From NCBI GenBank assembly GCA_002633005.1, contig NMRA01000064.1:752360-816359 (forward strand): a stretch of DNA of 64,000 nt, in the 5' to 3' direction. How positions within the stretch are numbered: position 1 is the stretch's first letter; the number at the start of each line of letters is the position of its first letter. Source of the stretch: Phoronis australis. Lineage: Eukaryota > Animalia > Phoronida. The notes below the pieces were generated by a model. That model saw only the letters and a list, made by a program, of their open reading frames with translations. It was not told where the DNA came from and did not search any database. Positions 28,611-53,375 of the stretch are shown one piece after another. A program made the translations under genes and the position numbers.

Positions 28611-28724
28611 ATGGCGGCGAAGAAGAGCTTTGTTGCACTCATCTCTACCATGCTGTTTCAAATATCTAGAACTTTGTATGAAACTGAAATACGGAATCTC
28701 TTCAACAAGGAATTAACTGGAGAG
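28611..28724 (+). CDS. Fusion gene exon 1: leader / putative signal peptide
   Basis: GACATGG context; [38 protein letters not shown]; gtgagt donor, phase 0. Confidence 0.7.
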
Positions 28725-52700: not shown

Positions 52701-53375
52701 ATTCGTACTGCTACATGTGTGAGGGCAACCCGTGTGTGACTGTTCGGAAAGATTGTCATACCTGTAATAACACTCAAGACGAGGCTCAGTGCAACACTCA
52801 TTATCTGTCTGGTTCAGGTAATAAGAAGTTACATATTCAACATTTTCGATTTGAATTGGAGATTTTTCCGCTATCTTGAAAAAAGAACTTCCACTATTTC
52901 ATTCTTTTGCTCATTTGAAAGGGCGTGGAAGGAACCTTTTACTTAATAAAACATTCTCTCGAAAAATTTTATGTTATCCATAGAATCAGTGGTCTAATTA
53001 CAAGGATTGGCTGCCATATCATAGGCTTTGCGTTACGACGATATTCTTGGAAAACTGACACACGCGGCAGGATTTTATGTATTCAACAAGGGTACTAAAT
53101 AGAATTCATGCAATATTTGCCATATAAAGCTTTTCGAAACCCATCTTCTATGGGAGTAGTTTTTTAATCTATATGTTTAGCACTGCGCCGCAAGGTTAAA
53201 AATGGCTAACTTCAAAGTAAGATGAAATGAGAATGATGCGTATTCTGGATACTTGTTGTCTGCGTTCGAGAGCCTGATCCTCTAAAACTGTACTTTTGTT
53301 TCAGGAATGGTAACGCTGTCCTGTGCCATATCATTGCTGGGTCTCATAGGTGTACAGTTAGTATTAGTATTCTGA
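28611..53375 (+). CDS. Whole gene: expansin-like (DPBB+CBM63) / tandem GH18 chitinase fusion with Cys-rich modules and GPI-type tail, ~1192 aa, 25 coding exons once gap-associated duplicates are collapsed
   Basis: All introns GT-AG with matching phases from ATG 28611 to TGA 53375; exon lengths sum to 3579 nt. Confidence 0.8.
29116..29265 (+). CDS. Exon 2: expansin DPBB domain start
   Basis: GTYYG..GGTC..VAI..CGMCAK; atcag/gtaag, 150 nt. Confidence 0.9.
30395..30488 (+). CDS. Exon 3: expansin DPBB domain
   Basis: [22 protein letters not shown]; ttcag/gtgag. Confidence 0.9.
30933..31074 (+). CDS. Exon 4: DPBB end / CBM63 start
   Basis: [43 protein letters not shown]; tttag/gtaac; not in the ORF track. 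Confidence 0.9.
31936..32077. mobile_element. Intronic MITE, CAG..CTG termini
   Basis: CAGCCGCAGAACCA / TGGATCTGCGCCTG; flanks TCATG/TTATG. Confidence 0.6.
32140..32324 (+). CDS. Exon 5: CBM63 (expansin domain 2)
   Basis: [32 protein letters not shown]; ttcag/gtgagt. Confidence 0.9.
32502..32873. repeat. Intronic minisatellite, 48-bp unit, ~8 copies
   Basis: AACACATGATTATGAAGACGGTGTATTAGGRTGTGCTCCTCACTGGTA repeated. Confidence 0.95.
33410..33466 (+). CDS. Exon 6: CBM63 C-terminus (57 nt)
   Basis: [22 protein letters not shown] is the usual expansin C-terminal strand; phase 1-1. Confidence 0.8.
33653..33709 (+). CDS. Exon 7: S/T/P linker (57 nt)
   Basis: [19 protein letters not shown]; ttcag/gtcagt; phase 1-1. 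Confidence 0.75.
34488..34544 (+). CDS. Exon 8: S/T/P linker (57 nt)
   Basis: [19 protein letters not shown]; tttag/gtagga; phase 1-1. Confidence 0.75.
34770..34936. mobile_element. Intronic palindromic MITE
   Basis: GGACCGTTTCAAGAAAAAGATCTTAAGTT / AACTTAAATCATTTTCTTGGAACGGGCC. Confidence 0.65.
37552..37716 (+). CDS. GH18 domain 1 exon A
   Basis: [29 protein letters not shown]; phase-1 acceptor, no own ATG or signal peptide. Confidence 0.95.
38079..38338 (+). CDS. GH18 domain 1 exon B (catalytic motif)
   Basis: [18 protein letters not shown] = intact DxxDxDxE. Confidence 0.95.
38477..38601 (+). CDS. GH18 domain 1 exon C
   Basis: [30 protein letters not shown]. Confidence 0.95.
39366..39489 (+). 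CDS. GH18 domain 1 exon D
   Basis: [17 protein letters not shown]. Confidence 0.95.
40072..40251 (+). CDS. GH18 domain 1 exon E
   Basis: [32 protein letters not shown]. Confidence 0.95.
40846..40956 (+). CDS. GH18 domain 1 exon F
   Basis: [27 protein letters not shown]. Confidence 0.95.
41266..41715. mobile_element. 450-bp foldback MITE with ~200-bp TIRs and perfect 5-bp TSD
   Basis: CAAGGTACCTAAACTACACGG / CCGTGTAGTTTAGGTACCTTG, flanked by TCGCA twice; second copy at 45638-46035. Confidence 0.9.
41791..42031 (+). CDS. GH18 domain 1 exon G + S/T linker
   Basis: [23 protein letters not shown] followed by an S/T/P-rich stretch; phase-1 donor. Confidence 0.95.
42285..42446 (+). CDS. GH18 domain 2 exon A
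   Basis: [30 protein letters not shown]. Confidence 0.9.
42842..43101 (+). CDS. GH18 domain 2 exon B (catalytic motif)
   Basis: [18 protein letters not shown] intact. Confidence 0.95.
43764..43888 (+). CDS. GH18 domain 2 exon C
   Basis: [30 protein letters not shown]. Confidence 0.95.
43984..44107 (+). CDS. GH18 domain 2 exon D
   Basis: [22 protein letters not shown]. Confidence 0.95.
44396..44466 (-). mobile_element. tRNA-derived SINE head / tRNA-like remnant in intron (duplicate ~48725-48795)
   Basis: A-box-like GTGGTTCAGTGG and B-box-like GGTACGAGTCCC at tRNA spacing, but no good cloverleaf. Confidence 0.5.
44604..44786 (+). CDS. GH18 domain 2 exon E
   Basis: [29 protein letters not shown]. 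Confidence 0.95.
46111..46351 (+). CDS. Duplicate of exon G + linker (second copy or allele)
   Basis: Near-identical to 41791-42031; splice sites intact. Confidence 0.8.
46603..46764 (+). CDS. Duplicate GH18 domain 2 exon A
   Basis: Near-identical to 42285-42446. Confidence 0.8.
47163..47422 (+). CDS. Duplicate GH18 domain 2 exon B
   Basis: Near-identical to 42842-43101; DGLDYDWE intact. Confidence 0.8.
48092..48216 (+). CDS. Duplicate GH18 domain 2 exon C
   Basis: Near-identical to 43764-43888. Confidence 0.8.
48316..48439 (+). CDS. Duplicate GH18 domain 2 exon D
   Basis: Near-identical to 43984-44107. Confidence 0.8.
48941..49123 (+). CDS. Duplicate GH18 domain 2 exon E
   Basis: Near-identical to 44604-44786 (GTYGR vs GNYGR). 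Confidence 0.8.
50455..50565 (+). CDS. GH18 domain 2 exon F
   Basis: [34 protein letters not shown]; 111 nt, same as domain 1 exon F. Confidence 0.95.
50923..51174 (+). CDS. GH18 domain 2 exon G + Gly/Cys/Thr linker
   Basis: [38 protein letters not shown]..; gtgagt donor, phase 0. Confidence 0.9.
51406..51517 (+). CDS. Cys-rich module 1 exon
   Basis: [37 protein letters not shown]; tgtag/gtacac; phase 0 to 1. Confidence 0.8.
51771..52142. mobile_element. Intronic MITE with ~45-bp imperfect TIRs
   Basis: GGGCCCAGAATCTAATCTTTGTACTCAAAACGAACTCGAAATTAT / ATAATTTCGAGTTCCATTTCGAGTAAAAGATAAGATTCCGGACCC. Confidence 0.7.
52701..52817 (+). CDS. Cys-rich module 2 exon
   Basis: [39 protein letters not shown]; tccag/gtaata; phase 1-1; homologous to module 1. 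Confidence 0.85.
53305..53375 (+). CDS. Last exon: hydrophobic C-terminal (GPI-signal-like) tail
   Basis: ttcag acceptor, phase 1; [27 protein letters not shown]. Confidence 0.75.

Follow-up and report, generated by a model that had tools for sequence, protein, structure and literature searches.

In bacteria, an expansin and a glycoside hydrolase are known to share one chain in the GH5–expansin and GH5–CBM2–expansin proteins of Xanthomonadaceae and in Clavibacter CelA (bioRxiv 10.1101/637728; PMC5072189). The survey of expansins describes fusions to CBM1, CBM2, CBM32 and GH5, with GH18 unmentioned in its main text, and its section 5 does not settle whether the handful of expansin genes reported from animals is real or stems from contamination (bioRxiv 10.1101/637728). 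The Exaiptasia 'Expansin-YoaJ' pairs an animal expansin with a chitin-directed partner, an invertebrate chitin-binding domain; that partner is a binding module only, no hydrolase being listed in the source (PMC6626399). Here we analyse a gene of Phoronis australis that probably fuses an expansin-like module to two GH18 chitinase domains. It lies on the forward strand at 28611–53375 of a 64,000-nucleotide stretch (contig NMRA01000064.1 of assembly GCA_002633005.1, positions 752,360 to 816,359), which we call the window and in which all positions are given.

The bacterial GH5 fusions carry a cellulase, have the expansin at the C-terminus and lack an anchor, whereas here the partner is GH18 and sits C-terminal to the expansin. 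Insect group III chitinase TcCHT7 has an N-terminal anchor and CBM14. It likewise has two catalytic domains and is membrane-bound (PMC5891080), but contains no expansin. A full-text literature search found no expansin–GH18 fusion, the Exaiptasia protein being the nearest; this agrees with the original prediction, made from the letters of the window alone, that the architecture was undescribed. Expansin–hydrolase fusions as such are already known, and it is the GH18 partner in an animal expansin that appears to be new.

Gene structure

The gene model was rebuilt from its coordinates, with 28000–56500 of the window read. As had been predicted, 25 exons on the + strand join in frame into 3579 nt encoding 1192 residues; there is no internal stop and all 24 introns are GT–AG. 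The protein consists of a leader, an expansin-like module of domains D1 and D2 (residues ~22–247), an S/T/P linker, a first GH18 domain (GH18a, ~286–650), a further S/T/P linker, a second GH18 domain (GH18b, ~688–1055), a G/S/T linker, two six-cysteine repeats and a hydrophobic tail. The exons are as follows.

28611–28724, + strand: exon 1, with the ATG, a likely signal peptide and the start of the expansin-like module (residues 1–38); it can be aligned to the leader of each of four bivalve relatives
29116–29265, 30395–30488 and 30933–31074, + strand: exons 2–4, the D1 double-psi barrel and the start of D2, with D111, C113, D122, W157 and Y158
32140–32324, + strand: exon 5, the bulk of D2 (CBM63-like), with D192 at the Tyr157 site of the bacterial expansin EXLX1
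33410–33466, + strand: exon 6, the end of the expansin module (G-x-QF segment), with an identical copy at 35644–35700
33653–33709 and 34488–34544, + strand: exons 7–8, the S/T/P-rich linker, with copies at 35886–35942 and 36696–36752
37552–37716, 38079–38338, 38477–38601, 39366–39489, 40072–40251, 40846–40956 and 41791–42031, + strand: exons 9–15, GH18a (D405/E407), then the second S/T/P linker
42285–42446, 42842–43101, 43764–43888, 43984–44107 and 44604–44786, + strand: exons 16–20, the first five GH18b exons (D806/E808)
50455–50565 and 50923–51174, + strand: exons 21–22, the end of GH18b and the G/S/T-rich spacer
51406–51517 and 52701–52817, + strand: exons 23–24, two related six-cysteine repeats
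53305–53375, + strand: exon 25, the hydrophobic C-terminus

Intron 11 contains a gap of 299 N.

The expansin-like module

The N-terminal module is expansin-like, as proposed. Searching exon 5 against 1.84 billion representatives returned five matches, three of them exon-sized expansin fragments; the remaining two were repetitive proteins and were dropped as chance. From 3583 candidates, a profile of the three fragments picked out four full-length proteins; all are uncharacterised, come from bivalves and have 241–249 residues (XP_060066506.1 of Ylistrum, XP_048735545.1 of Ostrea, XP_062586784.1 of Saccostrea and XP_011442024 of Magallana). Residues ~7–247 of our model align with these stand-alone proteins at 37–42% identity, and a profile built from eight relatives only matches residues 9–247 with an E value of 7e-67. 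In the PDB the family profile matched nine sequences, each an expansin or a grass allergen (best E 7e-12). A fold search with a structure model of the scallop relative (P0113, pLDDT 69) gave expansins in all of its top 12 rows. Single exons were less informative: exon 4 matches B. subtilis EXLX1 (2bh0) weakly (E 0.013), found no relative among five candidates as a protein query and had no useful match in an atlas search, in which exon 5 gave Expansin_C at 0.90, taken as a lead only. Pfam matched none of the five expansin exons scanned singly, each being too short individually. The full-length relatives themselves fall under the curated cut-offs (DPBB_1 and Expansin_C of Pfam at E 0.003–0.2; NF041144 at 76 and 62 bits of the 100 set), and we therefore label the module expansin-like. 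None of the bivalve relatives passes a Pfam cut-off, so the family is under-annotated; all four are named 'uncharacterized'.

The module shares its D1 and D2 order, and its full extent, with the microbial EXLX expansins (B. subtilis EXLX1, 2bh0 and 3d30; Clavibacter, 4jcw; Streptomyces, 9ms5; Talaromyces, 7wvr). Mapping through a shared profile places EXLX1 Asp71 at D111, Asp82 at D122 and Trp125 at W157, all three kept, and Trp126 at Y158, which is still aromatic. Asp82 is needed for loosening in EXLX1 (PMC5072189). Unlike the EXLX proteins, the Phoronis module is about eight residues shorter after the DLD motif, has Asp at the Tyr157 site, is encoded on six spliced exons, is joined to GH18 and lies below the family cut-offs. 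The bivalve relatives have the same deletion after DLD and the same Asp; they stop a few residues past the QF segment and are neutral to basic. The module has an isoelectric point of 4.86, against 6.75–9.17 in all four of these stand-alone relatives. Fungal expansin-related proteins of the acidic type are described as favouring chitin (PMC12779228).

Contamination was considered and rejected as the origin of the module, given its five introns, RNA splicing and annotated relatives on long bivalve chromosomes. The gene is spliced, expressed and set among animal-type exons, so the animal expansin is genuine in at least this one lineage. A pattern scan with P0113 found relatives in none of 69 stretches of prokaryotic genomes. 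In metagenomes, 155 stretches yielded three loci, all of them lacking GH18 matches to the model; one contig (L001:17-1704) holds three separated expansin-like pieces resembling exons 3, 4 and 5 (33–57%) and is probably another intron-bearing eukaryotic copy.

The GH18 domains and the C-terminus

Tandem GH18 domains with intact catalytic motifs had been predicted and are borne out. Both contain DGLDYDWE (DxxDxDxE, at 400 and 801) and both keep YYTNW, GGW, MAYD and MFWA; from these motifs both are predicted chitinases. A Pfam scan covered 19 of the 25 exons, including exons 16 and 17 of GH18b, and PF00704 was found in 11 of the 19, with profile positions 2–317 covered in order for GH18a and both ends of the profile covered for GH18b. 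The two domains are 64% identical and have all intron positions in common. They pair with each other (support 91) in a quick tree built on 91 domains, which came from 69 of the 93 GH18 relatives; the nearest other sequences are from scallop and snail. Identity, common introns and sister placement together indicate that a duplication specific to this lineage produced the tandem. An orthologue of group III (CHT7-like) chitinase was rejected, both domains lying in this tree outside the crustacean two-domain GH18 clades, which are presumably the group III lineage; the CBM14 of that group also had no Pfam match in the model. In Lingula anatina, two GH18 proteins (P0068, P0088) also contain PF03067 (LPMO_10); in parallel to the present gene, a chitinase of an animal is there joined to a fibre-opening helper.

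The two six-cysteine repeats are 31% identical to each other and match nothing in Pfam, NCBIfam or the PDB; their structure model was unusable (pLDDT 49.6). The hydropathy maximum of the whole protein (2.4, at residue 1174) lies in the C-terminal stretch, which by inspection is hydrophobic, follows a patch of small residues and has no cytoplasmic tail. A glycosylphosphatidylinositol (GPI) signal is laid out as a leader, a small-residue site and a terminal hydrophobic stretch without cytoplasmic tail. Judged from the sequence, the C-terminus is likely a GPI-anchor signal.

No CBM14 was found in the model by the Pfam scan (0 of 2 cysteine exons), and this bears on whether the expansin module could simply bind. 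In such a protein the fusion would be real and the module would take the place of the CBM14 of most animal chitinases, with no loosening. The two substituted sites, C113 for EXLX1 Tyr73 and D192 for Tyr157, favour binding alone. The second leaves two of the three aromatic residues of the EXLX1 triad W125/W126/Y157 on D2 (W157 and Y158), and is shared by all aligned relatives. The Asp82 equivalent is also lost in three of the four relatives, the oyster ones; the oyster proteins P0110–P0112 have Leu or Ala there, and the scallop proteins retain Asp. Four fungal loosenins are reported to bind chitin with no boost to chitinase (PMC9888185). Nevertheless, D111 and D122 are both retained in the Phoronis gene, and the Clavibacter expansin (4jcw) likewise has Cys at the Tyr73 site. 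We regard a module that binds only as unlikely.

Duplicated blocks

Exons 6–8 and exons 15–20 are each present twice, flanking N gaps.

35153–37351, + strand: second copy of 32921–35151, 94% identical, with a single N between; likely an uncollapsed haplotype
45638–49198, + strand: second copy of 41282–44861, 92.5% identical, with exons 15–20 intact (46111–49123)

In the first pair, exons 6–8 differ at 1 of 171 positions (0.6%) and the introns at 85 of 2019 (4.2%; P 0.005). In the second, mismatches are 2.6% in exons against 5.7% in introns, with 18 synonymous and 8 non-synonymous changes among 365 codons compared. In the second pair the first copy ends at a run of G and the second begins inside a palindromic element; this element lies in intron 14, at 41265–41699 and 45638–46036. 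Both blocks are probably uncollapsed haplotypes, and for 45638–49198 we hold the other haplotype to be a good deal likelier than not. It is possibly a real third GH18 unit: the frame stays open with both copies included, and a third domain would require ~1.7 kb within a gap sized 774. Further along, short doubles of 91 and 94 bases, ~97% alike, lie around single Ns at 55962–56144 and 56567–56755; the assembler therefore tends to set two haplotypes in tandem. A repeat in intron 8 (36889–37260, with its copy in 32921–35151) is matched at 90–95% likeness by RNA reads of both strands, which number in the hundreds, and is an abundant transcribed repeat family.

RNA evidence for a probable fused transcript

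Four RNA data sets (X1 to X4), three raw runs and a contig set taken by their species label, were compared with 35153–38863, 18–19% of each raw run being read, and X1 and X2 also with 28300–32480. A joint was listed when it had three reads from two starts. The joints examined are the ten up to exon 11. The junction from 36752 to 37552, proposed as a check, is present in RNA: seven reads with three starts in X1 join exon 8 to exon 9. Six reads with two starts in X1 join exon 7 to exon 8 (35942–36696), the exon 10–11 joint has seven reads with seven starts in X1 and one read in X2, and the exon 4–5 joint has four reads with four starts in X2. All of these joints are on the coding strand. Depth over exons 1–5 in X1 and X2 is ~1–3 (about one read on exon 1 in X1) and is 0 over introns 1–4. 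Reads on 35153–37351 carry the first copy's allele at five of six checked sites.

Phase-1 donors close exons 5–8, that of exon 6 lying where the stand-alone relatives have their stop. Exon 9 has a phase-1 acceptor only, the 28 open bases upstream of it lack an in-frame ATG, and exons 7–8 contain no in-frame start codon. A leader exon for GH18 was sought in 32325–37551; the one candidate (36647) occurs in a single copy only and has zero read depth, so no separate first exon is supported there. For its start and leader, the chitinase half seems to rely on the exons of the expansin. Exon 6 is homologous to the terminal segment of the relatives, the profile reaching 240 of 242 with it and 222 without. 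Its copy has a depth of about one read and no depth past the donor: 50 read letters aligned in a bin that contains 52 letters of exon. From homology, conservation and this one read's depth we infer the exon 5–6 and 6–7 joints.

Several observations weigh against the fusion. The exon 5–6 and 6–7 joints are not listed at threshold, four of the ten joints that the two compared stretches could show were listed, and the exon 8–9 joint comes from one run with three starts. X2 has depth on expansin and GH18 exons and none on exons 6–8; X3 and X4 have zero depth on exons 6–11. We nevertheless consider that a long fused transcript very probably exists; the gene itself is real and expressed.

A likely short expansin-only form

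RNA also continues beyond exon 5.

32325–33325, + strand: intron 5 entered by read-through from exon 5, with 17 more codons, a stop at 32375–32377, a likely 3′ untranslated region and AATAAA at 33261

At 32360–32480, past both the donor of exon 5 and the stop, X1 has a depth of 6.0, and 7 of its 16 reads run over the end of the compared stretch; X2 has a depth of 9.4, and 8 of its 18 reads do so. Plus-strand intron-5 reads laid on the duplicate in both runs carry the first copy's alleles at four of five intron sites, and they drop to ~0 at the equivalent of 33290–33325, just past AATAAA. A short transcript ending in intron 5 via polyadenylation is likely; its predicted product has 245 residues and is without the last D2 segment. 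There may instead be a separate RNA starting near 32330, as no single read is shown crossing the exon-5 donor. Within the likely 3′ untranslated region, a 48-base unit is repeated 7.5 times in tandem at 32512–32873.

The intron-5 signal also speaks for there being no fusion protein at all. The expansin gene would then end in intron 5, and the linker and GH18 exons would belong to a separate transcript with a missed start. Intron-5 depth, at 6–9, exceeds the exon depth of 1–3 and is the deepest RNA signal; in addition, the two joints around exon 6 are unlisted and all four full-length relatives stand alone. Yet exon 6, which is expansin sequence, lies beyond the likely polyadenylation site, does not differ between the two copies and has read depth. 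Moreover, reads enter GH18a from exons 7–8, which offer no start, and the short form misses the last D2 segment. We judge the absence of a fusion protein to be improbable.

The original prediction held that the two halves depend on each other, and named as counter-evidence expansin transcripts ending by read-through at 32377 and a first exon belonging to GH18. For the GH18 half the dependence appears to stand, no first exon of its own having been found in 32325–37551. For the expansin half, RNA beyond 32377 indicates that its exons likely end separately via intron 5; with reads past the exon-5 donor, the claim of mutual dependence is too strong.

Proposed function

The explanation we favour, to which we give a probability of roughly 45% as a whole, is a surface protein that loosens and cuts chitin matrix, together with a short secreted expansin form. 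The long transcript would likely encode a cell-surface protein, predicted to be GPI-anchored. Its distal expansin-like module would grip chitin fibres and slip them apart locally, and the two predicted chitinases, on flexible linkers, would then cut the loosened chitin. Most likely it would act at an epithelial surface and remodel chitin matrix that the animal itself makes. The second form, short, secreted and without its last segment, would likely arise by polyadenylation in intron 5. We infer chitin as the substrate of the expansin module, and likewise the loosening, the anchor and the tissue. The retention of D122 and the acidity of the module speak for the proposal. Expansin pretreatment has been reported to raise chitinase yield twofold (PMC4372547; PMC11036043), and in a beetle a membrane-bound two-domain chitinase organises new cuticle (PMC5891080); it is because of this tethered enzyme that matrix remodelling is ranked above digestion. 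The loosenins noted above count against this proposal, as does the lack of any fused relative among four expansin and 93 GH18 relatives. The searches for relatives were word-limited, and 0 of 4 and 0 of 93 are therefore weak evidence of rarity.

The same fused loosen-and-cut protein could serve digestion, either on the gut surface or after being shed, with mixed walls or the chitin of food (plankton, fungi, diatom fibres) as its target. Molluscan GH18 genes are described as expanded, many with digestive-gland expression (PMC7560691), bivalve expansins have been tied to algal diets (bioRxiv 10.1101/637728), and the GH18 domains show 53–57% resemblance to vertebrate acidic chitinase. A tethered enzyme would, however, reach food particles poorly unless shed, and the depth of the gene is 1–3 in two samples and nil in a third. 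A digestive role is in our view not likely, although it retains some weight.

Other features of the window

The remaining features that were recognised are listed here.

13545–13982, + strand: last exon of a PMP22/claudin-like gene (Pfam E 3e-4)
17446–17913, − strand: piece of a PAN domain (Pfam E 7e-5)
20826–21434, − strand: fragment of a retroelement reverse transcriptase (Pfam RVT_1, E 2e-18)
55073–55154 and 62114–62195, both − strand: two tRNA-Leu genes, anticodons TAG and AAG

Conclusions

The GH18 fusion partner is the first direct pointer to the substrate of an animal expansin, namely chitin, and suggests that animal expansins work on chitin. A natural expansin–chitinase chain would also provide a template for degrading waste of crystalline chitin. 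More tentatively, and with considerable doubt, the gene may represent a domesticated animal expansin that has become a chitin-loosening module, with intronic polyadenylation switching between a small secreted loosener and an anchored loosen-and-cut protein with two or three chitinases. If this is true, non-lytic loosening would be an overlooked third route, beside hydrolases and lytic polysaccharide monooxygenases, for opening crystalline chitin in eukaryotes.

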